Shown: positions 2,976-64,000 of the stretch, piece after piece
How positions within the stretch are numbered: the first letter of the stretch is position 1
Layout: each line of letters opens with the position of its first letter
From: Selaginella moellendorffii
Taxonomy: Eukaryota > Plantae > Lycopodiophyta
Length of the DNA: 64,000 bases
Assembly (NCBI RefSeq): GCF_000143415.4
Contig: NW_003314332.1
Coordinates: 186,001 to 250,000 of the forward strand
Direction: 5' to 3'
Made by a program: the position numbers and the translations under genes
The notes under the pieces: model-generated
What the model was told of the DNA's origin: nothing
The model's input: the letters and a program-made list of their open reading frames with translations, nothing else
The model's database searches: none

Positions 2976-3202
2976 TGCCGGGGTTACAGACCCCACTCGT
3001 GCACAGACCCCACAGACCCCAATCGACATTCTGTGCACGAGGAAAAGCCTCGCAACTTACTCCTTTTCCATAGAAACGAGCCCTAAAAACCGTTTCCTTT
3101 CCAAGGAACGGGAAGACGTTTGAAGAATATGCCAAATGGCATCTTTTTTAGGGGTTTTAAGGATTAGGGTTCTTCCAAGAATGCGGGCGCGATGGTGGGG
3201 GG

Positions 3203-38150: not shown

Positions 38151-38925
38151 ATAATTAATAATTAAATATTTTTTAATTTCATATACTTGTGTGTGTTTTT
38201 TTCAAAATACTCCCCATAGTACTGTAAGCCACAAATTTTTCCTTTCCAATTTGCCAGCTTACCTCGTCTATCCGACCAACACTGCCTTGGCTTTTGCTAA
38301 GTTCTCTCGCCAAGGTTCCCGCCTATGGTACCAGCTCCTACTTGGTTGTACTTGGTCTTAGCTACTCACTACACAAGCAACAGAGTGTTAGCCATCCATC
38401 CACGGATTCCCAAATCTCTCCCAATGCCCCTCTCCAGGTTAGACTGGACTTAAGGTTCAGCTACACTCCCTACAGGCACAAACAAGCTCTATTTTGTTAA
38501 AGTGGGAATTGTTATTATCCCACTTGTAAAATAAGGTTTCCAAACCTTTATATAGTATATAAATTTAATAAAATTCAACTGCATTGAGGCACATGCCATT
38601 TTATTTTAAACAAGGAAATGTCTACTCAATCACTTCTCCTCCCCCTGCCACTGCTTCACCTCTCTCTTCTCCTTGTCATCGTCGTCCAATTTCTTTCCAT
38701 CCTTTTAATATTGGCTTAGTTGCTCCGAGTCTAGGTGGAGCCCAAGTCCCCATTCAATCCTTACTTTCCCCTTATTAATAAAACAACTTTGTAGACTTCC
38801 AATAACATGCTGTAACACTTCTAGTATAATGCAAATCCTCTCAAAGAATTGTCTTTTAATATTAATACAATGGCATGGAACCCCATGCCATAATAAGTTA
38901 CATTTTTAAGTAAATACATGCCATC

Positions 38926-39810
38926 TCAGACTGTTATTTTTTGCCTCCAACGCCTATACAATAATCTTGGAATTTCATCACTCTCCACACTATCAGGATT
39001 TAAACCCAATAGTAATGCCATCTCTTCTCTAATACGTCCACGCTCATGTTCAGTGGTCGAAGAACCCATCCGGTTGAGTAGATTATGGAGATGCGGATAG
39101 TGCTTGGCTAGATAATATACATGCCATAAATGATGACTGGTGTCTGTCCGATCAAATGGCTTCTGATATACCGTTCCATCTGCCATTTGGTTGATTTCTG
39201 CAGCCACCTCCTGGACTGGCTGGTTCTCTATCACCATCGCTCCAAGCCGTTTTGCAAGGTCCCCCAGAACATACGGTTTCTTCTCCCTAGTTTCCATACT
39301 GCAAGAGATGGGGTGCACTGCATATGTGTGCGTGTTCGCTGCAGTTTTAATCGGCGAGTCATCGATGATGAGGATTTCACTTGACCTAGCAGTCCGGTTC
39401 ATCACTACAGCCTCTGGCTTGATGAAGATGGGCTTGCTACCCCTCACATGGACCATAGTCAAGCAATCCTCCTACGTTAGGAGAAAGTCAAATGGTAATA
39501 TTACTCGCATCTGATCGTGCATCATCTGTAGCAACGTTAATGCATTGTGGCGCATCATGGATGTCCAAACTCCCAATTGCAAATTGAACCCGGCCCTCTG
39601 TTTTAAGTGTCGCATGGTCATTATTAGATCCCGCAGTTTCTCCCGTGTGATTAATGTGAATCTGTCTCTTTTGACCAACTTGCGACCGTAGGCTTTGGAG
39701 GGTGCAGTGACATTCGAGGACGAGCCACGCTCATGGGAGAAAAGGACACCGTTCAGATCAAAAACGATACAGTACCTTCGCCGTGACTTTGAAATGAAAT
39801 GCGTCAACAT
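38926..39810 (-). pseudogene. FCP1/NIF-like HAD-superfamily phosphatase domain with a premature stop at 39472
   Basis: HAD motif I CIVFDLNGVL, motif II LGVWTS, FIKP and motif IV LIIDDSPIK. LLT*EDC is compatible with CAG>TAG. Confidence 0.75.
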
Positions 39811-41738
39811 AAAAAATGGTACAAGTCAATTTTACCATCTACAATATTAGCAAATGGTGCTCCCGATGGTCGTTGAGAGGGTTTTGGTCGAGGAAACGTG
39901 AAGGGCAGAAATACTCTCCTCTGCAATGTGGGGTCAATCGCATCCGATGGCGTGTGGGCACATGCCATTTCAGCTATAGACTCTGGTACAACTGGCTCAA
40001 CAGTGGCATGGGGTGGTTCCGATGGCGTGTGATCACACGCCATTTCAGCTGGTGCCTCCGTTGGCAAAGTGGACATGACCAAACAGGGAGCAGGGGCGGT
40101 GTAGGGAGGTTCTAACGGCGCGTAGTCAGACGATTGGGCACACGTTGAGTCCGTTGGAAATGAGGATACGACCGGTTCGGCTGCTGGGGCGGCCTCATGC
40201 GGGTCCAATGGCGCCTGGTCACCATCAGTTGGATACGTGGACAAGATTGACTCAGTGGTATGGGCAGCATCAAGTGGAGCGTGGTCAGCTTGCTTGGCGT
40301 TGATATGGATAGTAGCCTCCACCAGCTCTGATGACTCTTGCAGGTAAGTAGAGTCCACTGGCGGATCCATATGCATGTCCAAATATCTCCCTTCGATTGA
40401 GATGGTATCCTCCCGTGCTACTAAAAATAAACTCATTAGCACATTGAATCGACTATACTATATTTACCATCAACTACTATTGAGGAACTAGGATCGATAT
40501 CACTTGGGCGCATTGCTGATTTTGAAGGATTGGACATACGTTTCGACCCTTGCTTGGCACTATCCTTCCTCGACACTAAAGGCTAGAGTTTGTATCTTAA
40601 TTCAACTGAATAATCTCTACTTACCATTTGCTCTGCGACCTATATGGACAATGTTAGAAATGGTAAAAGGTTAGGAATGGATGTACTATTATTTACCTGA
40701 TGGTTTGTCTTGTATGACCTTCCTCTGCTGCTCTTTGGCCACCTCAGGCTGGCCATCGTCGTCATCATCGTCGTCGTCGTTATTGTGATCGTCACCATTG
40801 TGAGGACCATCCAAGTCCTCTTCGTCCTCCTCTTCTTTGTCCTCCTCTTCGTCCTTCTGCTCTTCCTGCTCATTATCTTTCTCTGGCTCCTCATCCCCCT
40901 CCTGCATTTCTTCCATAGGCTGCTCAGGCTGGATGGCTTGTTCTTCCAGGACCATCTTGGGAAAATCATCTGGCCGAGTCTCCATCTCAAAATACAAGAC
41001 ATCCATAGCCTGTTTTAGTGCGTGACCTAGGACCGTATCCTCACCCGACTATCTTAACATGGTTTCTGCACGTTCTTGCACCCTTCGAAGACGACGAGAT
41101 GAGAAAAACGTGGCCCTGACTTGAAAAGCATCCCTCATCCATTGTACCTCTCCATTGAGATTGGGGAAGGGGAGTCTGCCATAGGAATCTGAGTCAGGAG
41201 GTGGTGACTGGCTGCTTTCACTCAGCCCTTGATCTGCAATGAATGGCATGAGCACACACGCCATAACCGCGAGGCATTACCTATCATCTTTTCGTTGCCC
41301 TTCTTCCTTTTCGAATCAAACGCCTCTGATCCCGGCGACTGTCCAACGTGCTTTCGCTTTTTATGACCACTGTCAGTTTGAGCTTGGCTGGTGCTTGCCT
41401 GTTTTGCCTTTGAAGAAGTGTCTCCTGCAAGGAATGGCATGAGACCACACGCCATTGCAAATATAATTTGTACCTCCTTTTTTCCTATTGCTTGTCTGTT
41501 TGTCCTTCTTCGACGCGCCACCAGTGCGCTTTTCAGTCCTCGTGTCTGAATATTCACAACGATCTATAATCAAAATGGCGTGAGGCCTCACGTGACCTTA
41601 CCTTGTGCAGGTTGTGAGCTCGGCCCAACATGGGTATCTTCAATAGTAGCTATTAATGCCGTTTCAGCATCTGGGGGTGGCCACGCTCCTGCATACAGAG
41701 CTTGTGAGATAACATTTAAACTTAAAGTGCGTACTCAC

Positions 41739-44300
41739 CAGGTTCGCAGAGAAGATACTGTTTTTCTTTGGCAACTGTAATTATATGCTCCATTGAAGTC
41801 ACCTCTTCAATGGAGTTTGTCACCGCAACACACGGGACACCCTTGAGTAGTGCGGCTTGAAAGAATAGTCCACCGCAGTTGTACTCGACAACGCATTTGC
41901 CCTTGGAGTCGGAAGCAGGTGACCCACCCGCTATTGCGTTGAAGACCCAGCTGAGCATTTCCCATGCTGCACCTGGAGCTTTCTTTGGATTCGAAAGCTC
42001 CATAGCCGTCTTCAGTTCCTCAGGCACGGGTAAATTGACCTCCCTCAGATCAATTCGATCGGCCTTGTCGAACGAAGCTGGGAAGTCACTCCAGTCCCAC
42101 TTTGCTGTAGGACCAATAACAAGGGCGAGTGTGAAGATGCGGACATTTGTCGGTATCTTCTTCTTAGCCATTATCCCATGGATCTCCCGCATCTCCTTGC
42201 CTTTCAACCGAGCCTTCACCTCATTCAAGGCCTTCCAGAACTTGTGATAGGATTCGGAGTCGTAGATCATATAGTGGACTGAAGATTCCACCTCCGCAAG
42301 TCCCACCATTAAGTCAATGATGGAGCTGACTTCGTCTGCATGAGTGATCTCCTCGTTTGTGAAGTCCATCACACAAAAGATGTTCTTGACCTGCTCATCT
42401 CCGCGGGAAATGATGCTCCTCCACCTTTGATCCTCATCCGAATTCACGTATACCCGGTAAGGTTCTCGATAGGCCTCTGCTGCGGGGTCGAGCTGTTTCT
42501 GAAGCCGGCGGTCGACATCCCTCTTAATGAAATTTGGATACTGATCCAACTTCTCAGCTTTACTTTTCGTGGTATCCCGCAGCAGATCGATGAACTTGGG
42601 GGCCCCCTTCACGTACTCGTCGATGTCTTCATTTGACAACTCCAGCGCTTCCATCATCTCTTGCGTGGTGTCGATGCTCACCCTCTCCACGGCCACTTGC
42701 TCGAAGATCCAATCTTTCAATAGCGCACGAGCTCTCAGAGTCGTGCACAAGTCCTCGTATGTCACAATATGGCCGAAAGTCATTTTGGTCTTGTTGAAGA
42801 CTACCTCACCACGTAGAAGAGCATTAGCCACTGTCAGAAGGTCGTCGTCGTCTAGAGACCGCGACAAACACAAGGCGTTAAGCTTCAAATCATTGGGCTT
42901 CCGGCCGTCCTCCACACCCATTGAGTTTAGCAACTCCCCGTCATGGTACCTCCTCAGCACATCTACCCATTTGTCAAAAACAACTTTTGTCGCGAGTAGA
43001 ATGTTATGGATGCTGAGTGTGTCATTGACCCCCAGTTTTTTCGAGAGAAGACTCGAGAATTCCTGCAATGGAAATGGCGTGAGGCCACATGCTATGCCAC
43101 ATGCAACGAGGCTTACCTGCCAGGCGCTAGTTGCTAGTGCACGTCCTTGTCCTAGTTTTTGTGGCTTCTTCAGTTGAACCCAGAGCTTCTGTGTTCGTGC
43201 CAATGTCTCGTGCAGACCCAATTTGTAGCACGTTTCTTGCTTGACATTCTGTGCGTGGGAGATGTATATGATAGATCTGAGGGGCGAGTTGCCTTTTATC
43301 AGGCGGACAACTCTTGTCTTGAAGACTTTCTTCACCTCCTCGCCCACCATAATATCCACAACTATCTCTTGCATCGCCAAGCTAGAATGCTGCCCGGAGA
43401 CGGCATAGAACCGGATGTTCTGATCGTCCAACACCTTCCTATTGATCAAGTCTAGAAACCTCGTCTCGCCCTTCATTGTTCGGTAGTAGGGGATCACGTC
43501 TACGATGTCGGGTGTTACTGGACTTGCCAGCATCTTCTGCTTCAGTTTCTCCACCCACTCATCAGATACTAGCCTGTGGTTGTATTTGCTTTGGATGTCG
43601 ATACGGCTCACGTCGATTGTATATACTTTGTTGGAATAGTAACAAGTACTATTATCTGCGATGATTTTTGCTGCCTCTTCTTGCTCTGTCTGCTCTTTGC
43701 GGCTCTTCTTTTTGGTGGGTGTAGTGTTCGAACCCGAGGCAATGGCATCACCGAGTAGCTTCATTTTTGGAGGAGAGTCGGACGTCGGCTTGAGCTTAAC
43801 CATCCTTTTCTGCTTTGGGGTAGTTTCCAGATCGACCCCCTTCCCCTTCGCTTTGCGAACTAAAAGCACTCTCAATGGCTCAATGTTGGAATATAGTTTT
43901 TGAACATCGCCGTAGGTGAGGTCCATGGATTCCATGTGATCTTCATAGACCCACAGCGTCTTTGAAATTGTGGGCCTCCTGGACAACCTCTCCCTAGCTC
44001 CCTCTAGGAATTCCTCATAGCCGCTGCCCCCCTCCGGGAAGCCGCTAGGATGTGCAAGGTGGATCTTGAAGGCAACGTTGTCTCTACCACAAGTGCCAGT
44101 CCATATTCTTGCATGGAACTGCATAGAGTGTCTGTCACTTGGATGAGGATCCCCATGCATTCTTTTCTCCCACCATCTGTGTTGTACAGCCTCAGATCCT
44201 CGCCTTCCATCCCGAAAGTCCAACTGGTGAGCTCCTCCCCCTTCTTTGCATCCACATTGACAGTGGCTGGAAGAAGAACGCAATTCCTCACCTGTTCAGA
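41739..44300 (-). CDS. Large protein exons: ParB/Sulfiredoxin-like domain plus C-terminal beta-class N4/N6 DNA methyltransferase-like fold (likely inactive); further small exons continue toward 39.8 kb
   Basis: IDVSRID...NHRLVSDEWVEKLKQKM...FYAVSGQHSSLAM is a ParB/Srx/DGQHR-type core. KKAP...GKCVVEYNCGG.FFQAALLKGVPCVAV resembles MTase motifs X, I and II. In-frame intron 43063..43116 and splice donor at 41738. Probable frameshift at ~44085. Confidence 0.6.
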
Positions 44301-45570
44301 AATGCACAACAATTAGAGCTGACAGATGAAAAGCTAGCAGCTGGAAATAATGTGAGGCCACACGCCATTCACCATTGCATCAGATGTCTTGAGGCTGCAT
44401 CCTAAGATGGCCTGAGGCTACACACCATCTGTAACTGGACTGCACTCGAGAGCCCAATCGGTGCATGCCAATGTTGGTACTGAATGGCATGTGGCCTCAT
44501 GCCATTTTGTACTTGCCCTAAAAGACTTACCATTTGAAGCCGAATGGAGGCGTTACAACCGGACTCGCTGGCGAATGTGCACTGTGTGTGCAGTGGATCG
44601 TAGCAGCAAGGCTACTCTGCCACTTATAGTTGGAGAGTGGCGCTGAAATCTCCCGGGACGCCAAGTGGGGGCGGAGTTGGCGGCGAAGTTACAAACTGGG
44701 TGTGTCTTGAAGTGGATGCCGATGCACACGAGCGCGATGCGAGCGCGAGTGTGATGCAAGCGCGAGTGGACGCTGATGCACACGAGAAACCTGTAGAGAA
44801 GGTAGATGAGCGCGAATGTGAGCGTGATCGCGAGTGGGAGCGCGATGCGAGCGCGAGTACGAAGCAAAATGCAAAACCTAACCTCACACGCGCGAAATGT
44901 CACGACGGTTGGTAGTCCCGCCACGTCATCATTCCTCGGACTTGGGCGCCACCATTAATTTCTGGATCACCGCGCGCATGCATGCACGTGAAATCCAAAA
45001 GAAATCCGCAATGTCATCATTCCTCGGACTGCATGCACGCAAAATCCAAAAGAAAGATCATGATTGGGATATCATTTAATACCCTCGCTATATTTATACC
45101 ATGCATGATTGGATATTCCAAAGCATCTTGTATTTCCAAAAATGCTAGATGTTCAGCTAAATAAATTGTCAGAGGATTTGATGTGACGTTCAAGCGTGTG
45201 GGCTCATGCAATTTTGATCCCAAAAAATGCACTAAAAATTGCTCGGCGTCATCTGGCATTATCTCTTGAATGGTGTGGGGCCGCATGCCATTTTCAGGGG
45301 CACATAGGAGTATATTCCTAGAATATTCTAACACGCGCGAGATTGTTTTGAGTTTTCTGGAGATCCAACCGTTAGATTGCAACTAGATTTTACAGAATGG
45401 TATACAATGTCCTTCTTGATGACCCTGCAAATAAGCATCTCAATCGGACACCACATGAGACCACACGAGCCTTACAATGTTTCATGGGCATTTGCCATAG
45501 ATCCGACCGTTATTTTGCTCCAAGATTCTACAGTTTGGTGTGCATTGACCTTTCCATCGACACTGCAAAG

Positions 45571-48108
45571 CATAGTTACGAACACGAACATGGAACACGA
45601 ACAGGAGCCTCAGATTTCAGGAACCCGAACACAGAACACGATCACGGCCCACGATGGCTCACGAATATTCTACTGAATATTCTAAGAATATGTTATTTAA
45701 AAATTATATTCTTTTTCTTATTATATTATTATAGGAATATGCTATATTTTATTATATTATTCTTAATATTTTTATTTGCACATAAACTACTTCACACTTT
45801 TAAACTACTCAAATATCCTGCATCTCATCGTCATCTTCAACCTCATGATCTTCGACCTCACGATCTTCGACATCATCTCCATCTTCCTCTTCCTGTCCTG
45901 ACTCAAGCTCGTCTTCAAGATGAGGAACTGTGTCCAGGACTTTGTAGCTTACAAACTTGTCGTAATCACGATCATTTTTGCAGGTTAACAACCTGGTGTT
46001 GCAAGCCACAAAAACCAGATCCGCTGTCCTGTCCATGGTAAGTCTGTTCCTCTTTTTTGAAGAAACATGCTCGAAAGTACTGAACAATCTCTCCACCGAG
46101 GACGACGAGCATGCCTGACTTAGAACTCGAATGGCCAACTTTTGAAGAGCTGGAGAGTCATAACCATAGTCCTCCCACCAACGTACAGCTCCCCTCTTAG
46201 TGCGATCAGCCTTAGCATCATATGAGTTGAAAATGCCTCCTATCCTCCGGTAAGTTAAAAGCTCATCACGTATCACATCCCTCTCACTGGATGTAAACAT
46301 GGCCAGCAGATAAGCATTCCAGTCCTTCATGACCTCTCTGTTAGCATGCTTTTCATACTCCTAAAACTCGGGGTCCAACATGTATGCCACCGAGTGTATG
46401 AGCGAGTGATACTCATGCCACCTATTAGACATGATCTGATGAAGTTCCCTGTACCTGCCATAATCCGACTGTCCTTCCTCTAAACTTGCATCCAACCTGT
46501 TCATGCACTCATATATCTTTCCAATCGCAGGTATATCACCGTCCACAACACGAAGAAGCAGCATAACATCCTTGGACACCTCTAGCATGTCCTTAACCTG
46601 TTGCCAGAAACTGTCATCAAAAACCGTTGCATAACTGTCCCTTCCTGCTCTCGACTTCGACTCAGGCCTTGCTCTGTACGCAGGGCATACGAACATCTGT
46701 TGTAAAGCTTCTCGGAGCTCCACCAGCCTCTCCATCATAATGAAGTTGTAGCCGAACCTGGTATCACAATAACGCAGCAATCGCTTGTTAGTAAACTCCG
46801 CCAGCAGTGCCACTATATGAGAGTGGTTTCTAACGAAGATCACCAAAGACTTTCCACGCTCCAGAAGTGTTGCCATCCATGGAAGTACACCGAAGTCTTT
46901 CAAGGCATTGTTCAAGCAATGGGCAAAACATGCTGCCCATTGAATTTTCGGGTACCTCTATTGCAAAAGTGCTGCTGCTGCTCTGTTTGCATTTTCCCCA
47001 TCGGTCACAACCATGACAACGTTCTCTGCACCTACAATGTTAATGCCTTCTTCCCAGCAGCGCAGAGTATTTTCAGCTGTTTTTCCTGTTAAGGAAATGT
47101 CGATAGCCTTCAAAAAAGCTCCTCGTCCTTGACTATATGCCACAAGCCCCATGATATGCCGATTCCTCCTATCTGCCCACCCGTCTGCGCATATGGTTGC
47201 ACCCCTCTACTCCCACAGCTTCCTCAAGGACGCCATCTCAATGTCAATGAATCGTTTCTCTTTCACCAAAAGCTTATCCCGGAGATCATCATATTTTGGT
47301 GGTGCATAAGGCACACCATGCCTGGCAACTTCCTGTATCATGTTGAGGAAGTAAGGTGACCGAGCCTTGACAAATGGAATGTGTTCATTCCAGAAAAATC
47401 TTCCGATAGCCACATCAACTCGGTTCTTCCGCTCAGGATCCATCGAATCAACAATATGGACTTGACTCTGTTTGCTAAAAAACAGGGAACTGCAGCCACT
47501 TCCACTTGACTGGGATTATACCACCGGTGGAAATCCTTGGACATTGCCATCCATTCTCATAGAAGCACCACCAGATTCATTCGGCCGTTTCTTCCCCCTT
47601 GCCCCTTTCTCGAAATCAATAACCTTTTGCATATTGAGCAGATCCGCTTTCTTGTTACCTGGGATGAGAGGACAACTCACAATATCCTTGCTGCCTGGGC
47701 CTTCTCCTAACAGATGAGCTCCCACATGATCAACACCACTCAGTTTGTTCACCATTGGGCAGTATTTGCATGACCATAATTTGTGGCCATGCCCCCTGCT
47801 CTCAAGAACACTTACCTCATCCCACCATCGCGAAGAAGGATGCTTTCGCAGTATGCTGGATTGCTGCGCCATGCTTGTTTGCCTTGGATTGCTGCTGCTG
47901 TGCCCTGAAATGGTGCGCCCTGGCTAGATTGTCGTGTGATGCCGTGCGCCCTAAAACCAGAATATTCCGCGCGAGAATATTCTAAACAGTGGTCCGTGTT
48001 ACTAACACGGACCACTGTTCACGAACACGGCCGTGGGAACACGACCCATGGCCGTGTTCGTGAAACACGGTGAACACGGCCGGGATCCAGGCCGTGTTCG
48101 TAACACGG
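45571..48108 (-). mobile_element. hAT DNA transposon with 16-bp imperfect TIRs and 8-bp TSD
   Basis: TSD CTGCAAAG at 45563..45570 and 48109..48116. TIRs CATAGTTACGAACACG / CCGTGTTACGAACACG. Subterminal AACACG repeats. Confidence 0.95.
45809..47872 (-). pseudogene. hAT transposase (BED finger, DUF659-type core, hATC dimerisation domain) with premature TAG codons at 46958 and 46361
   Basis: WSCKYC..H, VMVVTDGEN, CDTRF, AYMLDPEF and WWEDYG...LAIRVLSQACSSSSVERLFS. Confidence 0.92.
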
Positions 48109-48310
48109 CTGCAAAGGGACATCACAATCAGATGCGGGATCACAAGAAACCAACTTCACTAACTCTGGTTTCACCAAGATCTACGTAAGGAGTTATGAAA
48201 TGAAAGGACCTTCTCTATTGAAATGTGTTTATGGTCCTAGGGGCATTGTGACATATCAAAGGATTTTGCATCAAGTTCTGTATTTGCATGTTTATCAAGC
48301 TACTGAATTG

Positions 48311-48344
48311 CTAAACCCTAAACCCTAAACCCTAAACCCTAAAC
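48311..48344. repeat. Interstitial plant telomeric repeat (CCCTAAA) x ~4.5
   Basis: CTAAACCCTAAACCCTAAACCCTAAACCCTAAAC. Confidence 0.92.
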
Positions 48345-50050
48345 ATGTGGCAAATGCTGCGTGGAGAAAGATGCCCTTTCTGGGCAAATGCTGTAAGAGG
48401 CAGATACCGAGCAGATGTATCTCAGGCTAGCGAAGGGGACAAACAAAAGCTAGCTATAAACATGACGGGATGCAAATAGATTACTAGGCTGGTCCTGCGA
48501 AAATCAAAAACCATAATTGAAAACATTGAAAATGCAAAAAGAAAGGTTTATAATATTTTTGAATTTTAAGCAACCAAAGGAATGTAAGTAGGGCATGTGT
48601 TTGTAAGTTTAAAAATGCCTCAACCACTTAAATTCCCAAGTAAATAAAGCTGTTTCTATTTTTGGTACAGGTAAACTTTATAGCATGTGGGCTCATGCAA
48701 TTTTGAACCCAAAAATGCACCAAAAAATGCTCGACTAGCATTATTCTTTGAATGGCATGTGGCCTTATATTGCCATAAATGGACGTACACACACAGCATA
48801 ATTATTCCTTTATACGGCGAATAATCTTGGCGCGGATCGCTGACACGGCATGGCAAAGTTCGAATCACTGACATGGCACAGCTGGATCGAGGCAAGGACA
48901 TGATGTGACAAAGTTCAACCTCCGACAGCAAAGTCTAGAAGCTACTCAGTTTGAAATTTGTCAGAGGAATCATAAGATCTGGTTTGTCAGACGATTTGAT
49001 GTGACGTTCAAGCGTGTGTTATTTTTGAATTCTCGAACTCATTCCTAGGTCTATCATTTTTGTGCGCCGTGTTCTTGGTTCCGTTGAGCGCAGTGAGCGC
49101 TGCTTGTGTAAGCAGCGTTGTGAGCTGTGGTTTATGCGTCTACAAGCGGTTGCGGCATTGCGAGCGCCATTGCGAGCGGCAGTTTATGCGAGTGGCAGTT
49201 TGTGCAAGCGGCGCTACGAGCAGTTGCGGTGTTGCGAGCGGCGCTACGAGTAGTTGCGGTGTTGCGAGCGGCACTGTCTTTGGTGTGGCTACCGCTTCCT
49301 CTTGATATTCGGCACTTGTGCTTCCTGGTATGTTCACCATGAAATGGCTTAGGACCACATTTAGAAATGGCATGAGGCCACATGCCATCTTGGGCCCTTG
49401 CAATTTCATGGCTAGCGTATTGTCATGTATGTCTTCGATGGGAATGTGGTCGCTATTGAACGAGGAGAGGTGGTCGTCGGGGTAAATGTTGTTGTTGCCT
49501 TGAAAAATCTGCAGAAAAAAGCAGATGTTGGGGACAGCGCAAGTGCGACGCATGTTCCCTCCGTGGATCTTAAGAACCGTGCTACATAGATTCAGGCAAA
49601 GGTGTTTCTAAACAACCCCGAGGGGGAGGTGGTAGCTGAGAGCTTAGCCACAGTTGTCGATCCAAGAGATGCGGTTGCTAATCAAGAATTGGGCTGGGAT
49701 GATATTGGAGTTGCGATTTTAGAGGTTGTTGACACAGAAGAAAACAGTCTGACTATTGGAAGCATTGTGCGGTGGAAATTGAGGCATTTAGTGTTTGAGA
49801 ATGTGAAGGATTCACAATCAAACACCACTACAACTGATGACAAAACATCTCTTCATGGGAAAAGAAAGTACACCTTCTTAAAGCGCAGCCAAAGGGATCT
49901 GAGCAACGAACCGAAAAGGCAGAAAATAGCGATGGAGGTTCGAATGGTCTCGACAGTTGCTTGTTACAAGAGGAGGTGCTGTCAACATGCTGATTCGGAT
50001 GCTATTGAAGAGGAGAGAGCAAGATACAAGACATTGTCCTGGAAGGCAGT

Positions 50051-51194
50051 TGTAAGAGACTAAATTTTCCATTCTACTTTAGTCACTTAACCACACCTCT
50101 GACCACTTGGAGGAGTCTCATTCACAACCTCCATAAGTCCAATCCAGGACTTGGGACTTGCTAGCCCCGAGAATGGCATCCATGCCACTCAACATTTGCA
50201 CTTGGTCCAAGTGCTCCACGTGTCCGATCCCATGACCGACACTCAAAGGTACCACCGACATAGCAGCCCGTTACGCTGAGGCCATGCCCAATCACCTTTG
50301 CCACATTGGTAGTCCAATACCACTTGCATCACAGTCTTGGCTCCCAAGACTAGGCAAACCATCCGTGAGTGGTCATCTCAGATCCACTCCTTAGCATCCT
50401 TAGGATGCCCACCGACAAGGGGATAGCCTTCCCCAATATCCCTCTGTCAGTCCCCACTAAGTCCCTTTCTGCCCCTGGTCGTGTTTGCCAAGACTGTCAC
50501 TGGATCGAGACCCACAGGCCCGACCACTAAGTCCCACAGTCCTCTGGGACTTCCTCACCACACGACTGTGTCCTTGGTCACTACCCCAGAGGACTGCTCC
50601 TCTTCCTTTCCACAGTCTGGGCCTTTGGGACAACATTTCGGAACACCGTGGCCTTACGCGAGCCACCTGGGTAATCTCCTCGCCTTCTGCCCTTGGGTGC
50701 TCTAGCCATGGGCTTAGAGCGGGTTCCGTTGAGCCACACCAGGTATCCAAGTAGGTAGTGCCACCCACACTTGGACTGGGAGCATCGGCCAGTCGATCTC
50801 CCGGGGGAACTAGAGCCGGCTCTTGAACACTTCACCAAGCTACCCCGCTTGTCGGTCTGTGTTCACTCTAGTCTTGGACTTCCCAGTGGGCAGCTCATCA
50901 CCCAACACTGGGTCCGGCCTTCCTGGGCCAAACTGGCCAAACTGGCCAAACTGGCCTTTCCTGGCCAAACTGGCCTTTCCTGGCCAAACTGGCCTTTCCT
51001 GGCCAAACTGGCTCCACTGCAGTCCTCCCCCTTACTATACTTTTGGAGCTCACCAAACCCCCCAGGGTCTGGGAGACGAACGCTTTGGGCTTTCACCCTC
51101 TCAGACTCGAACTCGGACTCGGACTCGGACTCGGACTCGGACTTGGACTCGGACTTGGACTCGGGCTCGGGCTCGGTCTCGGCCTCGGTCCCGA

Positions 51195-51232
<38 letters not shown>

Positions 51233-54200
51233 CCGGTCTCGGTCTCGACTTTGGACTCCATCTCGGACTCCATCTCGGACTCCATCTCGGACTCCATCTT
51301 GGACTCCATCTCGGGTCCATCTCGGGTCCATCTCGGACTCCATCTCGGGTCCATCTCGGACTCCATTTCGGGTCCATCTCGGACTCCATCTCGGACTCCA
51401 TTTCGGGTCCATTTCGGGTCCACCTCGGACTCCATCTCGGACTCCATTTCGGGTCCATCTCGGGTCCACCTCGGACACCATCTCGGGTCCATCTCGGACT
51501 CCACTTCGGACTCCAACTCGGGTCTATCTCGGACTCCACTTCGGACTCCAACTCGGGTCCATCTCGGACTCCATCTCGGACTCCATTTCGGGTCCATCTC
51601 AGGTCCACCTCGGACTCCATCTCAGACTCCATCTCGGGTCCATCTCGGACTCCATCTCGGACTCCATCTCGGATCCATCTCAGACTCCATCTCAGACTCC
51701 ATCTCGGACTCCACTTCGGGTCCATCTCGGACTCCATATCGGACTCCATCTCGGACTCCACTTCGGGTCCATCTTGGACTCCATATCGGACTCCATCTCG
51801 GACTCCACTTCGGACTCCATATCGGACTCCACTTTGGGTCCATCTCGGACTCCATCTCGGACACTTCCACGTGTCATGTGTTGGTCCTTTTGGGTCCCTT
51901 TTTGGAGCCTCGCTTTTTGCTCGCTTCGTGCTCATTCCTCGAGCACTTCTTTGGGAGTTCCACTCCCGCTCTTGACTTTTCAAGTCGGAGCTTTTGGTCC
52001 AAACGTGTTACGCTCGTTTGGCTCTCGCTTCAGCCACTACCACGTGGCACCCTTTCCGGCTCCACTTTGGGGCCTAGGGATTTTGTGTCTCACAACTCCA
52101 CCACCCATAGACAAAGTTCGATGTCCTCATCGAACGGTAAACCATTTTGTAAAGTAACACTTGCATGTGTTACCATTTCCATCCTTGGCACCTAGCCAAT
52201 ATTTGTCAATGGTTTGACATTGAAGGCTCACCATGCCTTTTGGATATGCCTCAATGGTTTGACACCAAAGGCTCACCATGCCTTGCCTATCCTCTAAGGA
52301 GGGTAGTCTCTCCAACTTAGAGACTGATTGGACCACATGTAGTGGTTCTCTCCTTTTATTGGTTTAGTTCTCGCTAAACCTCTTAGAGACCCTTCTCTAA
52401 GTCAATCCCACTACTCCTTCTTGAGTAGTTTCAATTTCCATCTATTGAATGTTTGCACCTTGGAACTTTTACTCTTTTGACTTTTGGAAGTCAATTTCCT
52501 AGGTGTCTCCAACACCTTGCATTGCACAGATTGTGCAACTCCACTTCTCTATCCTAGGAAGTTCATTACTTGAGGGCACCATCATCCTCTCTTCTATTTT
52601 GTGCCACCTTGGGCACTAAGTTCCATTTATCACACTTTGTGCTAGGGTTGTCCATCGCCCTATCATTTGGCTACCTTACTGCTCCCTCCATTGGAGCTTC
52701 CACTTTCACCAAATCGGAGCAATTCGGAATCCATCCTTGGAAACACACTTCCTTTCCCGCAATTTGTTAGCGTCCAACACATCAGTGTTCCTTGCCTAAC
52801 TTTGTCACTTGGATTCCTTCCCAGGGATTCCACGGCCCTATCTTGGCCACTCATCTTTTGCTCCTATCCGTTGATTGTTGCACCAAGCAACATCGAATCT
52901 CTACCTCCCTTCTTGAGGTATTCTTTTGATTCCATAGCAAAGGCTCTGCTTTGCCAAGACTAGGGTGTTCACCCCTAGTAAGTCTCTTTTAGCATCTTCT
53001 GCTGTGGGCTCTATCCTCGGCCCAGCTTTGTGACCCTCTCATGGGTCTCTTTAGAGACTACTTTCCTTGGACACCCTATGCCATCGCAATGACATAGCTC
53101 ATTTCCCTAAGGTGCTTTTCCCACTTGGTCACCTTGACCAAGCCACACCATCATCAATGGTTCAAATCAACACTTTGAACTAGGAACCTTATTCCTTAAC
53201 CCAAACAAAGACCTTGTCCTTATTTAGCCACAAGATCACCTAGTGATCTCACCTCGGCACCTTAACAGGTTTGCCAATAGGTACTAGGTCTTCCAGACCT
53301 TTAACTTGTTAACTACGACCCCGGGGGCATCCCCCACACTTGGCGGTGCGCCCAAGCCAGCCCTTCTGGCCAAGGGTCCATAGCAACTGAGATTAGGTGT
53401 CCCCATCTCACTCACCACGTCCTTGGTGCCACTTGCACCAAAGCGTTCAAGTTAGATATGCCGAGCTTTCACACTAAGCAATCTAACCGTGCATCACGAC
53501 TCCGAGGCATCCCTCGCTTGGCGGTGTGCCCAAACCAGTCTCCCCACTGAGAGTCCATGACCACCGAAATATGAGTGTCCTCATATTCCAAACCATCACC
53601 ACACCCTAGTGATTTGGGACTCGAACCCAAGCACTAGAGGGTCGGGACTCGAACCCAACCTCCGTATATGCATCTACGGACGGCATCACACAAGATGCCT
53701 GGCGTGACTCCCCACGCCGGTGCACCAACTTATTTTTAAAGTGCGCTACAGATCACAGCTTAGGAACCTAGTTCCTCCACACTGCCAAGTCCTCTCACTT
53801 GACATGTCTGTGATCATGCATGGACTCCTCCATGCTCGGCCCCATGGCCCACCCTTTTTGAAGTTATCACCTTCAACTAGGGTATTTGTTCCCCCGACGT
53901 GCCAATCTCGCTTGGCAAGTCCTCCGACCACTGTAACATGGTTCATGCATAAGCGTGAAAGTCCTTGACCATCGACTTTCGTTCAAAGCCCTCTCTTTGA
54001 ACACTCGGGAACTACTTCCCTAACCTTGATAGCCTTGCCTCATGGCAAGCTTCAAGACCACGCTTCTGCTGCACCACTCTGATTTTGCGCGTTCCATGAA
54101 CTATTTACACTTGGCCTTTCTAGGTACTAAGCTACCTAGAATCGTCTTTGGGAACCTTGAAGGAACTCTGTCCCTCAGCTTGCTAAGGCCTCCCTTTTTG

Positions 54201-57200
54201 CAAGCCTTCAAAATGCCATATAGTCTAACATGGACAATTCCATATTTTAGACTCTCCATGGCATCACGGTTGCTAGCGGTAACACCCTCGAGCCCCCACT
54301 TGATTCTCCACTGCCAGCTGGCATAACCAACCTTGGTTATGCCCTTTGATTCCTATGGTTCGGTTCTATCCTCTTACTTCTTGCTTTTTGGCTTCACACC
54401 TTTCCTTTGGTCATTCTCCTCCAGACCAGGAGGATAACTTTGCACTTTCTATCACGCTTTAGCAAGTATTCTTAGGGATGAACCTACCCAATAGCCTAGG
54501 GAGTGGTTCCTCAATCTAGGTATGCTCACCTTATAATCCCACACACTGGGATTACATTGTTGCTTATGGGCCTTTACATGCCCATCACTAGCCTTGCCAA
54601 AATTCCATTTTTGGCTTTGTCCAACTCGGGTAGACAGTCCTCTTCTATCTCCGCAACCTTGGACATTTGGATAACACCTTCTATTCATCATTCGCTAGAG
54701 ACTTAGTCCTTTGGGCTTTATCCATTGCCCTCGCGACATCAAACACCACCTTCTGGTGTTCTAGAGTGTCCGGGTGTCCCAATGATGGCTTTCTTGACAA
54801 TGAGTATTTCCTTTTATGACATTGACTTACTATATCGCAACACAAGCAACTTATCCCCCGTAAGGGTATATCCAACTTCCTTATGCTATTAAGAAGTCTT
54901 GGGTAGCTACCTTCTACCCGTTTAACCAGTTATTTTGCACCTCTTGCTTAGTTTCCTCATAGTTGTCAAGTCCTACAACTCATTGCTTGGTGCTTTCACA
55001 CCTCCTTCATTATCTGGGTCACCACACTCCAACTGCATGCTTTGCAGCTTAGGCTATGCCATTCCCATTTCCATTGGGATTCCTTTGGCAAGGGGTTCTC
55101 ATGAACCCACCAACATAGCCTCAAGGTATCACACCTTGGCACATTTGGTGTCTCCACACCATCGGCTCCACAAGCCTACCTCTATGACATTTCCCCTTCG
55201 TGTCTAAGTCTTTGCCAAGACCAACACCGCTCTTTCTCATGCCAACCATCCGTTAGCACTGCCCCATAGAGGTCACACACAACTTTATGTCAAAGTTGTT
55301 TTCTTCTGGGAACACCTTTCCCATAACTTTAGCATGGCACATTTTGCCATCGATGAGATACCCTCTGTTCTCATCCTTGGATCCTATGATCCCCCCCCAT
55401 CCTTTGTGGGGTACAACACACCTCAGTCCAAATGCTTCCATCAGTCCTTTTAGGACCATCCCTTGACTCTACTTGAGTCATCCAGCAGTTTTGGACTTGG
55501 TTAATCCACAGACCCGTAAGGTCCTACTTGTGAGGCACTAGCTCACTGGAATACACTTCTTGCATTCCTGTCCTACTCAAAAGGACTATTTTCACAAGTG
55601 TTACTCCGACACTTGATTTTGTTCTCTGGGGGCAACTTTTGCCCCTTAGGACTACTTGTCCATATGATGAGAATACCACTCATCTCTAAGTACACCCCCC
55701 AACTCCTTGGGTTGTTCCAGCATTTATTAAAGGTAGCCCCGGCTACCATTTCAAGGACTTGAGTCCTCTTCCGTATTTGACCTTCCACGGTCATTACCTT
55801 TGGCCTCACATTCATGAGTACCAACCTCAACTATATGAGGATAATCTTGTGACTCCTTTATTGTTTTGGAGTCTCTATCTTTCCCGTGATCCCAACTTTA
55901 GTTGTTTACCACAACAACCTTAGCCATTTTGTTGAGACAAATGCTCATCCGGATCCCATCCTCAACTCAATGAGGAAAACCTTGCACTGTTCCCAAGATC
56001 CCAAAGTCGTTCCATTATTGGCCCTTTTCTATCCACCACCTCGTCTACAAGTTCACACATGAACTGTAATGGAGAGCCATGTCTTCCCGACTTGCTACTC
56101 CTCAAGGATAGGCCCACTCCTCGGACCTTCCGATGCCAACACTAGTGGTGATATAGTTGAGCACCAATAAAAGTCGGACTAAGGAACAGCTCCGATACCA
56201 AATTGTAAGAGACTAAATTTTCCATTCTACTTTAGTCACTTAACCACACCTCTGACCACTTGGAGGAGTCTCATTCACAACCTCCATAAGTCCAATCCAG
56301 GACTTGGGGCTTGCTAGCCCCGAGAATGGCATCCATGCCACTCAACATTTGCACTTGGTCCAAGTGCTCCACGTGTCCGATCCCATGACCGACACTCAAA
56401 AGTACCACCGACATAGCAGCCCGTTACGCTAAGGCCATGCCCAATCACCTTTGCCACACTGGTAGTCCAATACCACTTGCATCACAGTCTTGGCTCTCCA
56501 AGACTAGGCAAACCATCCGTGAGTGGTCATCTCAGATCCACTCCTTAGCATCCTTAGGATGCCCACCGACAAGGGGATAGCCTTCCCCAATATCCCTTTG
56601 TCAGTCCCCACTAAGTCCCTTTCTGCCCCTGGTCGTGTTTGCCAACACTGCCACTGGATCGAGACCCACAGGCCCGACCACTAAGTCCCACAATCCTCTG
56701 GGACTTCCTCACCACACGACTGTGTCCTTGGTCACTACCCCAGAGGACTGCTCCTCTTCCTTTCCACAGTCTGGGCCTTTGGGACAACATTTCGGAACAC
56801 CGTGGCCTTACGCGAGCCACCTGGGTACTCTCCTCGCCTTCTGCCCTTGGGTGCTCTAGCCATGGGCTTAGAGCGGGTTCCGTTAAGCCACACCAGGTAT
56901 CCAAGTAGGTAGTGCCACCCACACTTGGACTGGGAGCATCGGCCAATCGATCTCCCGGGGGAACTAGAGCCGGCTCTTGAACACTTCACCAAGCTACCCC
57001 GCTTGTCGGTCTGTGTTCACTCTAGTCTTGGACTTCCCAGTGGGCAGCTCATCACCCAACACTGGGTCCGGCCTTCCTGGGCCAAACTGGCCTTTCCTGG
57101 CCAAACTGGCTCCACTGCAGTCCTCCCCCTTACTATACTTTTGGAGCTCACCAAACCCCCCAAGGTCTGGGAGACGAACGCTTTGGGCTTTCACCCTCTC

Positions 57201-57963
57201 AGACTCGAACTCGGACTCGGACTCGGACTTGGACTCGGACTCGGACTCGGACTCGGACTCGGGCTCGGGCTCGGTCTTGGCCTCGGCCTCGGTCTCGTTC
57301 TCGGTCCCGATCTCGGTCTCGGTCTCGGTCTCGGTCTCGACTTCGGACTCCATCTCGGACTCCATCTCGGACTCCATCTCGGACTCCATCTCGGACTCCA
57401 TCTCGGGTCCATCTCGGGTCCATCTCGGACTCCATCTCGGGTCCATCTTGGACTCCATTTCGGGTCCATCTCAGGTCCACCTCGGACTCCATCTCAGACT
57501 CCATTTCGGGTCCATCTCGGGTCCACCTCGGACTCCATCTCGGGTCCATCTCGGACTCCACTTCGGACTCCAACTCGGGTCTATCTCGGACTCCACTTTG
57601 GACTCCAACTCGGGTCCATCTCGGACTCCACTTTGGACTCCAACTCGGGTCCATCTCGGACTCCACTTCAGACTCCAACTCGAGTCCATCTCGGACTCCA
57701 CTTCGGACTCCAACTCGAGTCCATCTCGGACACTTCCACGTGTCATGTGTTGGTCCTTTTGGGTCTCTTTTTGGAGCCTCGCTTTTTGCTCGCTTCGTGC
57801 TCGTTCCTCGAGCACTTCTTTGGGAGTTCCACTCCCGCTCTTGACTTTTCAAGTCGGAGCTTTTGGTCCAAACGTGTTACGCTCGTTTGGCTCTCGCTTC
57901 AGCCACTACCACGTGGCACCCTTTCTGGCTCCACTTTGGGGCCTAGGGATTTTGTGTCTCACA
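50051..57963 (-). mobile_element. Non-autonomous (LARD-like) LTR retrotransposon; LTRs 50051..52094 and 56204..57963
   Basis: Near-identical TG..CA LTRs, TSD GCAGT/GCAGC, tRNA-Met PBS (reverse complement TGGTATCGGAGC, 56189..56200) and PPT at 52095..52107. No recognisable pol in the 4.1-kb interior. Confidence 0.93.
51100..51862. repeat. 6/12-bp microsatellite array (GGACTC, GGTCTC, TCGGACTCCATC) inside the LTR
   Basis: Directly visible. Shorter or diverged versions at 57200..57730, 36697..37070 and 61600..61860. Confidence 0.95.
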
Positions 57964-60899
57964 GCAGCTCGCAATTTTGTGTATGAGGCATTACGGTCAT
58001 CTGTTGATGCTTCAGAACATCAGGTGGGGGGCATGGTCTTCCAGAGGGGTTTGGTCTGTATGAAGGCATGGAGAATCATTTATGGAGTCCCTCGAACCAC
58101 ATTCTACAGAATCAAAACTGAGTTCGAGGAACAAAGGGTTCAACAGGCAGTCCATGGGAATGACAGTACGCACAAAACCAGGGGTCATGTTGTATATGGA
58201 GAGGCAATCTTCAAGAGGTTTGTCGAGACATGTAGCAAGCAGCAACCACATAAAACCCGCCTCTTGGAAGATGGAACACGAGACACCCAACGAGTTCTCC
58301 CTTGCATGTATACCAAGGGGGCCATATTAGAAGATGTGAATCGGGAACTCCAGAGTAATGGCTACAGGAAGCTGAGAAAATCTAGATTTAGTAAATTGTA
58401 GCAACAGGTTCAGGGATGTGAGTATAGGAAAGTACTCCAGCTTTTCAAAGTGTGACGAGTGCACTGCTATCAAAATTGCTTTGTCGAAGAATTCTTGCAG
58501 CGCTCAAAAGCGAGAGACGTTGGTTAGAAGGCGGCTCGACCACAACATCGAGCAGAGAAGCTGCAGGACTGCATATTATCATAACAGGATTCTCTCCATG
58601 GAGAGACCTGACTCTTACCTCTGCATCATCCACGACAAAATGGACTAGAAAAAGACGTGCTTACCTCGACTCAATCCTACCCCCAAGGCAATCTCTTCAT
58701 GCCTGTGTCTCTGTTTGGCATAATCGCTCATGGGCATGGTGCCCAGAACTATGGGAACTTCTTTATACCTCTATGGGGTGGCGGGGGTGCAAACATGATG
58801 ATTGCGTCCCTAGCAAAACACTTAAGGTCTCTGCAAAGTGCGCAGACTGAGCTGAACAGCCAACCCTTGCATAAGGCCCTTGTCGAACGAACCCCATACA
58901 GGGTTCAGCTGGAGGAGGAGCAAAGGCTTGCAATATCGCGTGGGGCCCCATGCCATCCCAGTGAATATGTTGGCCGTCAGATTGTAGGGTTATCACGTGA
59001 GGCCTCATGCCATTCCGACGAGGCTGGTCGCCCGGTGAATGCACAGCCTCATCCAAACGAAGTAGAATCTCAAGGAAGTTCTTGCGGCCGATGTGGCCTT
59101 CCACCCCATCTTCTGCTCCAAACAGACAATACTGGCAGTGAGAACAAAAACATGTACGTCTTCGCGTACTTGGCGATGCTTGTTGCCAAAGGCATATTTT
59201 AAACGGTTACACTTGGCTTTCTCATGGTTGGGCACACTCATGAAGACGTCGATGCCATGTTCAGTCACCTGGCAGAGTCCCTCCGGTGATCCAATGTCCT
59301 CACCCTCCCACATCTCTACGATGAATTCCAAAATTGCATCAAAGGCACTGTTGAAGCTGCACTTGTGACAGAGGTTCCAGACTTTAAGGGGTTTGTAAGA
59401 GGCTACATCAGGGACGGATCCGAAACGCTGATTGGCCACTCCAAGCCTCTTCAGTTTCATTTCAGCATGCGTGACGGTGCTCCAGTGATGAGGTACAAGA
59501 TGAGAGAATGGGACACAGTGTGGCTGCCAGTGGATGGCATTGAACTCTTCAAGGGAGATCCCATAACTGGGGAACCTATGATTCCTCAGGGTTCCCCACG
59601 GCCGATGCACCTGGATGGACTCAAAGACCAGGAAAGTATAGTGTCCGGGATTAGATAGCATATTGCCTTCTGGAAGAGGGGGTTGGTGTTTGGTGGAGAA
59701 TCCTATTTTAAGAGGTGCAAGCCTTTGCTCGAATACTGGGAGAAGATTATATCTGCTATCCAAAATGGGCCGGTTGTATATGAAGAATTGGAAGAGTCCT
59801 TTTGGCCAGAACCCAGAGCACCAAATAGTAGTGGAACAATGTCCTTTGGAAATGCAGTGACAGATAATGATGTTGAGGATCACTATTGTGGGCCGAGGAA
59901 CAAGAAGTCGGATTCAGCATTCAATCCAGTACAGGTCTGCAAAGGAATGGTCGTGCTTGTCAGACCCAGTAATAAAAAACAAATGATATGGGTGGGGCGC
60001 TGCATCACTGATGCAGAGGAGGAAGCGGAAACTAACTCCTTCAATGTAACTGTGGAGTGGTTCAAGCCAAGTTCCGGATATACGAAGGATTGCCTAGAAA
60101 AGAGATGGGTGCTAAATCCAAGGGATCCCAGCATGAGCATATCGGTGGATAATGTTGTGCATGGTTGGATGTGGAAGCAGAGTGCCACCATCACCTTGCC
60201 AGACCATGCAAGAGATGCAGCAAGAGCATTCATAACCCGGGTTCAAGGTGAGATTCATTAATATTCCTTTACTAAGTTTCTAATGTATTTGATTTCAAGG
60301 TGAACAATCCGAATCTGAATCAGAGGAGGCGTGATGGCATGGCGTGATGGCGTGAGGCGTGACACCAAAAAGGAGGTGTCCACTAGCGCTTAGGCTTATA
60401 ATGGCGTGTGCCCTCATGCCATTTACTTGATCACCAAATACCTTTTTCCCTTTGCACTAGTATATCTTAATACCGGTCTGAGAAATAGAATGGCATGTGC
60501 CCTCAGGCCTTTTACTAAATCACCTTTGAAAGAAATGCAAGCCTCTATGTCGTAAAAAAAAAGTACTAGAGAAATTCCTTAATAATATGAATGTTATTTA
60601 GTTTCATGAAAATACACTAAAGGTCAAATGAGTTAAATGACTTCTCCAGACTAGCAATGCCTCTTGCTACACCTTCACAATTAGATTCGTTAGAAAAAGA
60701 TAACATTGAATAATATCTAAATGTTCTCACCATTAAGTTATATGTCTGGCTAATAGGAATGACGTTCATCTTGGAAAGCTCACCACACGCTCAATGAACA
60801 AACAAATAGTGTGTGCGCGCATGCCATCGCTCTTCTTTAGCTTCATATTCGGCTTGTTCACCTTGACAATGAGATTTATTATACAACCAGATGGACTCA

Positions 60900-63800: not shown

Positions 63801-64000
63801 GCATAGCCCGTTTTCTCTTTCGTTGGTAGCTCACCTCTCTGATGAGCTTCCCGTGCCTCTAGATTCCTCAGCAACACTTCTTGTGCTAGACCATCGTTCT
63901 CATATACTGTCCGCACATCATCCCAAAAGGTTGCTATCGCGCTAGATATTGCTAACTTCAAGCTCGACTTAGTGCATCTGCCACGATGTTGCTCTTCCCA
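60900..64000 (-). mobile_element. 3' part of a Ty3/gypsy chromodomain LTR retrotransposon (integrase, chromodomain, 3' UTR, 3' LTR with inner edge at 61940; outer edge uncertain)
   Basis: CHDEPFAGHGG, TMDFIMGL..VVVDRFSKMAHF and EEYKVEAIL...KWKGFPHCEATWEP. PPT at 61941..61953 is identical to that at 52095. Confidence 0.9.

Follow-up and report, generated by a model that had tools for sequence, protein, structure and literature searches.

What reads a palindrome that recurs over and over within a single transposon, and to what end? The question is raised by a stretch of 64,000 nucleotides from the lycophyte Selaginella moellendorffii (NCBI RefSeq assembly GCF_000143415.4, contig NW_003314332.1, positions 186,001 to 250,000 of the forward strand), the whole of which is called the window below. 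It holds a DNA transposon that carries a 24-bp palindromic word at 21 places and, beside a transposase gene, a second gene, referred to as the cargo gene, whose product is predicted from structural models to consist of a ParB/Noc-like fold followed by a beta-class amino-methyltransferase fold. There is in our estimation an even chance that the palindrome serves the element as a parS-like self-tag, which its ParB fusion would read in order to control the element's chromatin or expression. That the cargo protein is the reader of the palindromes appears rather probable from the models.

The palindrome was defined by a symmetric weight matrix and a regular-expression scan of the window, which gave the consensus AATGGCRTG-WGSSCW-CAYGCCATT (24 bp). 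Twenty-one sites score at least 12 bits, and one bulged copy at 48751 scores 11.3 bits. Confinement was assessed within the 64-kb window: all 21 sites lie in the 12,118 bp of the element's own DNA, as against none in the remaining 51,882 bp. At the same threshold no site is present in the left flank (38,483 bp), the right flank (2,947 bp), the nested hAT element (2,538 bp) or the nested long terminal repeat (LTR) element (7,914 bp), the best score in the last being 10.5. Dinucleotide shuffles of the element (n = 200) yielded a mean of 0.095 palindromes and a maximum of 1. Since the matrix was trained on these very palindromes, less circular checks come from leave-one-out scores and from the spacer histogram. 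The leave-one-out scores of the 21 range from 12.3 to 37.0 bits, and among left-right half-site pairs lying within -4 to 30 bases of each other, exactly six bases separate the 8-bp arms in 13 of 15.

The original prediction, made by a model from the letters of the window, had named about 17 copies confined to one element. All 17 named starts lie no more than one base from a matrix site, that at 48751 being the bulged copy. The statement that copies are absent from the nested hAT and LTR elements and from the DNA before 38.5 kb holds at the 12-bit threshold, and a run of half-sites is indeed found at 60328-60362, where a cluster had been described. Confinement stands for the full palindrome; for exact half-sites it is less strict, with 31 inside the element and two outside it in the window (7802 and 22534). 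The centre, which had been thought to vary from 4 to 6 bp, is instead of fixed length.

Two arm positions are conserved, in 21 of 21 and 19 of 21 palindromes, respectively, and in most copies 8-11 of the 12 mirror pairs match. At these pairs, the observed number of Watson-Crick matches hardly departs from the expectation for independent columns: nine observed and 9.0 expected at positions 7/18, seven and 7.2 at 10/15, and, where the gap is largest, 12 and 10.4 at 12/13. There is thus no sign of arm covariation at any of the 12 mirror pairs, and this, together with the fixed spacer, favors a protein site over a hairpin. Arm covariation had been proposed at the outset as the means of telling the two apart, and the binding site for a dimeric protein that was then suggested fits the fixed spacing, the lack of covariation and the presence in the element of a gene for a predicted ParB/Noc-like protein, from which we infer binding. 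A scan of 38400-61100 with Rfam returned no families.

The alternative, that the palindromes act as hairpins in RNA or single-stranded DNA, for example by aiding the splicing of very short introns, could draw on the number of matching mirror pairs and on four copies that lie in inferred introns of 38-54 nucleotides, 3-10 bases from the acceptor end. It is highly improbable in view of the missing covariation, an invariant loop length and the occurrence of copies in intergenic and terminal DNA as well. On the transcribed strand, moreover, three of 13 cases have an unpaired A-C or G-G at the variable pair, and four of 13 have G-U.

Nor are the copies readily explained as neutral relics of small internal duplications, an origin to which we attach only the faintest probability. 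One short duplication does carry two palindrome pairs (45190/48679 and 45269/48751), which flank the hAT element on either side, and some close pairs lie 54-89 bp apart. Apart from that duplication, however, the flanks of different palindromes are unrelated, with scores near background (median -15.5), while the cores are conserved, as at the two arm positions named above. It is therefore the word itself that is conserved.

The location of the copies supplies the next part of the answer. With the bulged copy included, 18 of 22 lie in DNA that is non-coding in the inferred gene model, and eight crowd the 5' and intergenic region of two divergent genes (44346-49366). The original prediction had stressed copies inside coding sequence. 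Those encoding MACAHTPS, MACDHTPS and SREASCH are true open-frame copies; the emphasis was overdone, with only four of 22 (39946, 40021, 58934 and 58991) in inferred coding DNA. Removal of five inferred GT-AG introns from the cargo gene gives a single frame of 957 codons beginning at 44160 on the minus strand. These introns amount to 7.7% of the mapped cargo span and hold all four of the palindromes found there. Because introns were sought around palindromes, this enrichment is partly circular; the frame test is the independent part. Three of the four palindrome-bearing introns have a length that is no multiple of three, and the frame does not stay open unless they are removed. Annotated relatives from a fern and from Selaginella lack about 18 residues at the 54-nucleotide segment, and two unspliced relatives (P0003 and P0005) terminate at its donor. 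Public sequencing runs, designated X1, X3, X20 and X24, were aligned to positions 38300-48290 of the window, and the stop that ends the 957-codon frame sits where X1, X3 and X20 read another letter (41051).

For the remainder of the cargo gene no firm exon chain was obtained between 40700 and 39830. Beyond this gap lies a remnant resembling NIF/HAD phosphatases. In tblastn searches two fern proteins, P0009 (E 2e-4) and P0022 (E 0.006), match 39265-39795 on the cargo strand, and Pfam gave no match to the window frames at 38926..39825. By sequence, a NIF phosphatase part is likely to be fused to the cargo gene here.

A palindrome of fixed spacing, present at 21 mostly independent places and steered to introns and gaps, is the mark of selection for a dimeric DNA-binding protein. 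ParB, Noc and KorB are proteins that bind dispersed palindromes, and it is to them that the predicted fold of the N-terminal part of the cargo protein is closest. For both AlphaFold2 models the top Foldseek matches are Noc/ParB (E 2.4e-4 and 1.6e-4), the best being Noc bound to its site, followed by ParB. In VIA comparisons the N-domain aligns with 7bm8 over 98 residues (Z 10.6; root-mean-square deviation, rmsd, 2.2), 178 of 190 residues align with the parS-bound ParB of Caulobacter (6t1f, rmsd 4.5), and KorB gives a Z of 8.7. Residues 404-636 match the methyltransferase M.MboIIA (Z 10.5, rmsd 4.9, 172 aligned), alignments over 404-645 take in M.RsrI (Z 10.2) and M.PvuII (Z 9.2) as well, and Foldseek of this part gave an E of 8e-4. 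In the ESM Atlas, residues 170-400 group with DUF3723 clusters (score 0.97); hidden Markov model searches of the element frames with Pfam PF12520 (DUF3723) gave no match. A profile search of PDB sequences with the cargo family returned unrelated helical matches only.

A search of a viral structure library found as best matches proteins of about 500 amino acids, aligned over 638-695 columns with E of 2e-6 to 5e-6, of which the first is unnamed and the second is named ParB/Sulfiredoxin. This suggests, at the level of predicted structure, that the cargo gene is of phage ParB-methylase origin. The exact palindrome pattern has no match in viral contigs. Relatives of the cargo protein were collected with HMMER, which returned nine, two of them spurious, and then eight more; the named ones come from S. 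moellendorffii and the fern Adiantum nelumboides. The spurious pair, a yeast repeat protein (P0002) and a bacterial repeat protein (P0006), was dropped. Two candidate related loci, a phage locus (L001) and a bacterial glycosyltransferase locus (L002), also proved spurious. In the A. nelumboides proteins P0009 and P0022 a NIF phosphatase (PF03031, E 6e-17 to 7e-17) is attached to the ParB-like and methyltransferase-like parts, and relatives P0024-P0026 end after the latter of these.

The motifs of the two domains depart from those of their bacterial counterparts. Canonical ParB proteins have cytidine triphosphate (CTP) motifs in the form of an arginine-rich GxxR box and an EN glutamate. The corresponding box is SGQHS in the cargo protein and SGLHS, SGQHS, DGQHT or SRLHS in 10 relatives, so that the pattern G-x-H-S/T (with R for G in one row) is seen in 11 of 11 covering rows and the GxxR arginine is replaced. 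In the EN motif the asparagine is retained and the glutamate is replaced in all rows checked. Beta-class methyltransferases have (D/N/S)PP(Y/F/W) as motif IV and FxGxG as the S-adenosylmethionine-binding motif I. Placed by eye from strand order, motif IV is DFTN here and DAAH, DMAH, DLRR, DSAN or DATT in nine relatives; the aspartate is kept and PPY is absent in 10 of 10 rows. The motif I region is VVEYNCGG here and VLDVFACG, VIDINTGG or IVEYGCGG in relatives, with the acidic residue kept and the glycines partly so. By these sequence criteria the methyltransferase domain is probably inactive. No ParA ATPase gene was found among the element frames scanned with Pfam, a scan that short exons escape.

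If the palindrome is a self-tag of this kind, the 21 sites across the 12-kb transposon would be occupied by a dimer of the predicted ParB-like cargo protein, which would spread between them and coat the element. The coating would most likely keep the element open to transcription or govern its chromatin in some other way, much as VANC acts on VANDAL transposons. The absence of the motif IV PPY and of the ParB GxxR arginine favors a role as a DNA-bound platform or base reader over one as an active methylase or canonical CTPase. At the variable half-site position, CATG is present in 20 of 42 half-sites and CGTG in 14 of 42. Since the position accepts CG as well as CA/TG, a site would survive both host CG methylation and its deamination product.

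The same counts bear on another candidate. A dimeric host factor, whether a NAC protein or a B3 protein that recognizes CATG, might bind the palindromes, the element having collected host sites for its expression. According to the available text of PMC4081100, the NAC palindrome is CGT-N7/8-ACG and a single CGT[G/A] core can suffice. CGTG is found on at least one side of 12 of the 21 palindromes, but on both sides of only two, and CATG is the more frequent form. In addition, there is no palindrome near host genes in the 38 kb of left flank, and 24 constrained bases exceed the need of a NAC core, which makes a host factor very unlikely.

In another version of events the same ParB-like protein would bind and do a mechanical job, either by compacting or bridging the element so that its ends meet or by holding the excised element on chromosomes until reinsertion. 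ParB proteins bridge and condense DNA. This version uses the same sites and folds, and suits the even spread of the palindromes from end to end, with a largest gap between neighbors of 1,654 bp. It is unlikely, given that the methyltransferase-like domain and the probable NIF phosphatase point to chromatin or transcription and that copies crowd the 5' and intergenic region of the divergent genes.

The reading of the palindromes as a self-tag that controls chromatin or expression can be extended, and the extended form is unlikely to be right in all its parts jointly. It holds that a phage-derived ParB-methylase has been domesticated by land-plant transposons as a working nuclear ParB/parS system, in which a nucleotide-gated clamp would load at family-private palindromes in tiny introns and gaps and slide over the element. 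The clamp would deliver a rewired methyltransferase fold, serving as a base reader or as a shield against host 5-methylcytosine, along with the NIF phosphatase. The recognition helix and the palindrome would co-evolve family by family.

Several results weigh against the self-tag reading. Single-sequence searches with the cargo protein (Pfam, NCBIfam, PDB sequences and a word search) returned no match, and none of the sequence searches gave a ParB or methyltransferase family; the C-terminal part of the protein scores 0.80-0.86 in the ESM Atlas, a lead only. The AlphaFold2 models are of modest quality (mean predicted local distance difference test score, pLDDT, of 62.4 and 70.1), and the putative helix-turn-helix is their weakest part, with a pLDDT below 50 at residues 167-202, a segment that includes an unspliced intron. 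No joint matching the inferred introns occurs among the joints listed for X1, X3, X20 and X24, beside which there are 43 more. Genuine coverage by RNA is close to nil: the aligned reads of X24 number 540, of which 538 fit only partly, with depth in six of 30 bins. Contigs of X20, whose status as RNA is a guess, run unspliced through 44259-44620.

The composition of the window copy is likewise unfavorable. In the public runs its differences from other copies, 255 rows in all, are mostly A>G and T>C. For rows from 39221-42880, among 40 listed of the 255, 13 of 18 transitions fall at CG or CHG, compared with a background of 35% (p 0.001), which gives the window copy the look of methylated, decayed DNA. 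CpG ratios are 0.69 for the element, 0.71 for the hAT element, 0.29-0.60 for LTR element regions and 0.86 for a host pentatricopeptide repeat (PPR) gene. CpG and CHG ratios do not separate the element from the hAT insertion, and, with a CpG ratio no higher than that of hAT, composition gives no support for anti-silencing.

The element itself is a DNA transposon with ends of a recognized type. The Sola superfamily is marked by terminal inverted repeats and a 4-bp target duplication. Both are found here; the 30-bp terminal repeats match at 28 positions, their first 24 bases being identical, and the only Pfam match of the transposase is to DUF7869. We take the transposase to be Sola-like, with motifs DNC..NKN and GH.H..D-like. 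An empty site is seen in contigs of X1, X3 and X20, which leave the window at 38481 and resume in the right flank, and a second insertion in a contig of X3 that begins at 38484 with a different flank. This second flank and 36,072 aligned records point to a multi-copy family. In X1 the summed depth, which is not a copy number, amounts to 6-9 x 10^5 in the element and to 3.6-8.9 x 10^3 within the hAT insertion, and X1 contigs include the hAT-free joint of 45562 to 48109. A sister protein (P0031) reads in one frame through the point of LTR insertion and through palindromes 58934 and 58991.

Binding by the transposase, with the palindromes as subterminal motifs or activator sites, is a further candidate. 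Six of the 22 palindromes lie within 1 kb of an end, and in the available text of one report transposases can activate their own copies in a sequence-specific manner (10.64898/2026.08.24.746577). The other 16, however, are more than 1 kb from both ends, the word is absent from the 30-bp terminal repeats, and the ParB-like gene would be left unexplained; we regard this explanation as quite unlikely. The coordinates of the element and its parts are given in Table 1.

Table 1. Features of the palindrome-bearing transposon (positions in the window).
Feature	Position	Strand	Remarks
Whole DNA transposon	38484..61053		About 12.1 kb without two nested elements; inserted in an LTR retrotransposon; from inverted repeats and AAAC duplication
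Left terminal inverted repeat	38484..38513	+	Target duplication AAAC at 38480-38483 before it
Right terminal inverted repeat	61024..61053	-	AAAC at 61054-61057 after it
24-mer starts, first 11	38577, 38869, 39946, 40021, 41242, 41433, 41574, 43073, 44346, 44406, 44483		Weight matrix, at least 12 bits
24-mer starts, other 10	45190, 45269, 48679, 49366, 58934, 58991, 60346, 60400, 60489, 60805		Weight matrix, at least 12 bits
Palindromes 38577, 38869	38577..38892		Left non-coding end, 3' of cargo gene
NIF/HAD phosphatase-like remnant	38926..39825	-	Probably last part of cargo gene
Low-complexity open frame, 217 aa	39804..40457	-	Inferred coding linker; palindromes 39946 and 40021 inside
Cargo gene, mapped part	41050..44160	-	Predicted ParB/Noc-like and helical domains, then methyltransferase fold, then basic/acidic tail exons
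Inferred 47-nt GT-AG intron	41234..41280	-	Holds palindrome 41242
Inferred 49-nt GT-AG intron	41425..41473	-	Holds palindrome 41433
Inferred 38-nt GT-AG intron	41564..41601	-	Holds palindrome 41574
Inferred 50-nt GT-AG intron	41689..41738	-	No palindrome
Predicted beta-class amino-methyltransferase fold of cargo	~41770-42470	-	AlphaFold2, Foldseek, VIA
Predicted ParB/Noc-like N-terminal and helical domains of cargo	~42680-43680	-	AlphaFold2, Foldseek, VIA
Inferred 54-nt GT-AG intron	43063..43116	-	Holds palindrome 43073; at start of putative helix-turn-helix
Palindromes 44346, 44406, 44483	44346..44506		5' region of cargo gene
Palindromes 45190, 45269, 48679, bulged 48751	45190..48774		Between two divergent genes
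Nested hAT element	45571..48108	-	8-bp duplication CTGCAAAG; Pfam PF05699 and PF04937
Palindrome 49366	49366..49389	+	Probable intron in transposase 5' region; GT and AG around it by sequence
DUF7869 transposase gene	49539..60261	+	PF25273, E 2e-12; interrupted by LTR element; several stops and frameshifts
Nested LTR retroelement	50051..57963		5-bp duplication GCAGT/GCAGC
Palindromes 58934, 58991			Open-frame insertion upstream of Pfam match in transposase gene
Palindromes 60346, 60400, 60489, 60805	60346..60828		Right non-coding end

Copies of the family differ in further ways. An X3 contig ending at 41386 has an additional palindrome-like word where the window differs, which suggests gain or loss of sites between copies, and in one X1 contig 44072-44158 is replaced by an insertion resembling plant telomere sequence. 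Past the transposase stop, 60295-60341 and 60820-60866 form a 47-nucleotide imperfect inverted repeat (81%), each arm of which ends in a palindrome half-site; a small inversion within the element might account for it, or the nesting of a miniature element.

The surroundings are rich in retroelements. Gypsy-type LTR elements or LTRs with shared motifs occupy 26960-33974, 35801-37307, 50051-57963 and 61054-64000, and one has a chromodomain. The palindrome-bearing element is inserted in one Gypsy-type element and is itself hit by another. Host genes in the window are ordinary and include a GH3 fragment (628-1179) and a PPR gene with an E motif (3161-5602). Bacterial-type Fic genes are unusual in plants; a Fic/DOC frame (PF02661, E 6e-11) is present on the minus strand at 23226-24041, in a window rich in PPR genes, and a similar frame at about 25059-25745, also on the minus strand, is cut by a run of N.

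Most of what is known about how transposons recognize and protect their multi-kilobase bodies comes from VANDAL and VANC, and for ParB-like accessory genes, namely Plavaka PAG3 and possibly Starship DUF3723, a target has only been proposed. The element described here provides a sharply defined 24-bp word as candidate site, in 21 natural variants, together with a single candidate for its reader. If the self-tag reading is true, a fold known from bacterial segregation would also serve self-recognition in plant nuclei, a function would suggest itself for DUF3723-like cargo, and chromatin research might gain a compact tool that spreads from specific sequences.

The known systems resemble the element in different respects. 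Bacterial ParB-type sites are 13-16 bp in length. As in ParB/parS, Noc/NBS and KorB/OB, a predicted ParB N-domain precedes a helical domain whose alignment extends over the DNA-binding domains of those proteins, and as in the bacterial systems several palindromic sites, 21 in this case, lie on one replicon. In contrast to bacterial ParB, other residues stand in place of the GxxR arginine and the EN glutamate, no ParA was found, there are extra C-terminal domains and the sites are of 24 bp.

VANDAL transposons are Mutator-like. With VANDAL/VANC the element shares an element-private motif that lies in non-coding regions, by the inferred gene model, and a candidate reader encoded by the element; it differs in having a 24-bp palindrome, one duplication only, a DUF7869 transposase and ParB-fold cargo. 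In the available text of PMC5735166, the private motifs bound by VANC21 lie in introns, in intergenic DNA and in the terminal regions of VANDAL21. The motifs are words of 8-9 bases amplified by tandem repeats, and the main text of that source does not contain 'palindrom' (PMC5735166).

Phage ParB-terminase loci have ParB next to or fused with an amino-methyltransferase, and eukaryotic clades of ParB-linked methylases include haptophytes, chlorophytes and chytrids, according to the available main text of PMC4738411, in which the word Selaginella is absent. The cargo protein is like the phage ParB-methylases in its full-length structural matches and unlike them in that the catalytic motif is lost. 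DUF3723 genes are cargo of fungal Starships, and the available text of that report mentions no palindromes with them (10.1101/2021.12.13.472469). The likeness to Starship cargo lies in the DUF3723 score and in the carriage of a conserved gene by a large mobile element; unlike Starships, there is no PF12520 match and the element is of another type.

The closest parallel comes from Plavaka of red algae. In the available text of that work (Petroll et al., 10.1101/2025.02.11.637652), the ParB-like gene PAG3 lies beside tandem arrays of inverted repeats and self-binding is proposed. There the PAG3 ParB is fused to a 2-oxoglutarate oxygenase, an N6-adenine methylase is fused to SET on a separate gene, and the element is of the EnSpm type (10.1101/2025.02.11.637652). 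Both are eukaryotic DNA transposons with inverted repeats, a ParB-like N-terminus in an accessory gene and a methylase-like accessory part. Unlike Plavaka, the Selaginella element is a DUF7869 (Sola-like) element of a land plant, in which ParB is joined directly to a methyltransferase fold that lacks PPY and, probably, to a NIF phosphatase as well, and in place of arrays there are 22 dispersed single sites, some in tiny introns.

Sola1 is listed for Physcomitrella in the available text of PMC9033089, and ParB does not occur in the main text of PMC12973397 or PMC13547354. A literature search found no description of a 12-kb Sola element with a ParB cargo gene and, among the matches listed, no eukaryotic ParB-transposon case other than Plavaka. 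A transposon ParB gene beside inverted repeats (Plavaka) and a reader of private motifs (VANC) are already in print, as far as the available texts of those reports go. The literature search turned up no description of the combination seen here, a land-plant Sola-like element whose predicted ParB is joined to a methyltransferase fold and whose dispersed palindromes lie in part in inferred introns; we take it as a fresh version of a kind already known. The element is not a member of ParABS, lacking the CTP motif and ParA; it does not encode a methylase of active type, by motif; and it is neither VANDAL nor Plavaka. By analogy, its mode of recognition is likely to be that of ParB and parS, and its purpose is perhaps that of VANC.

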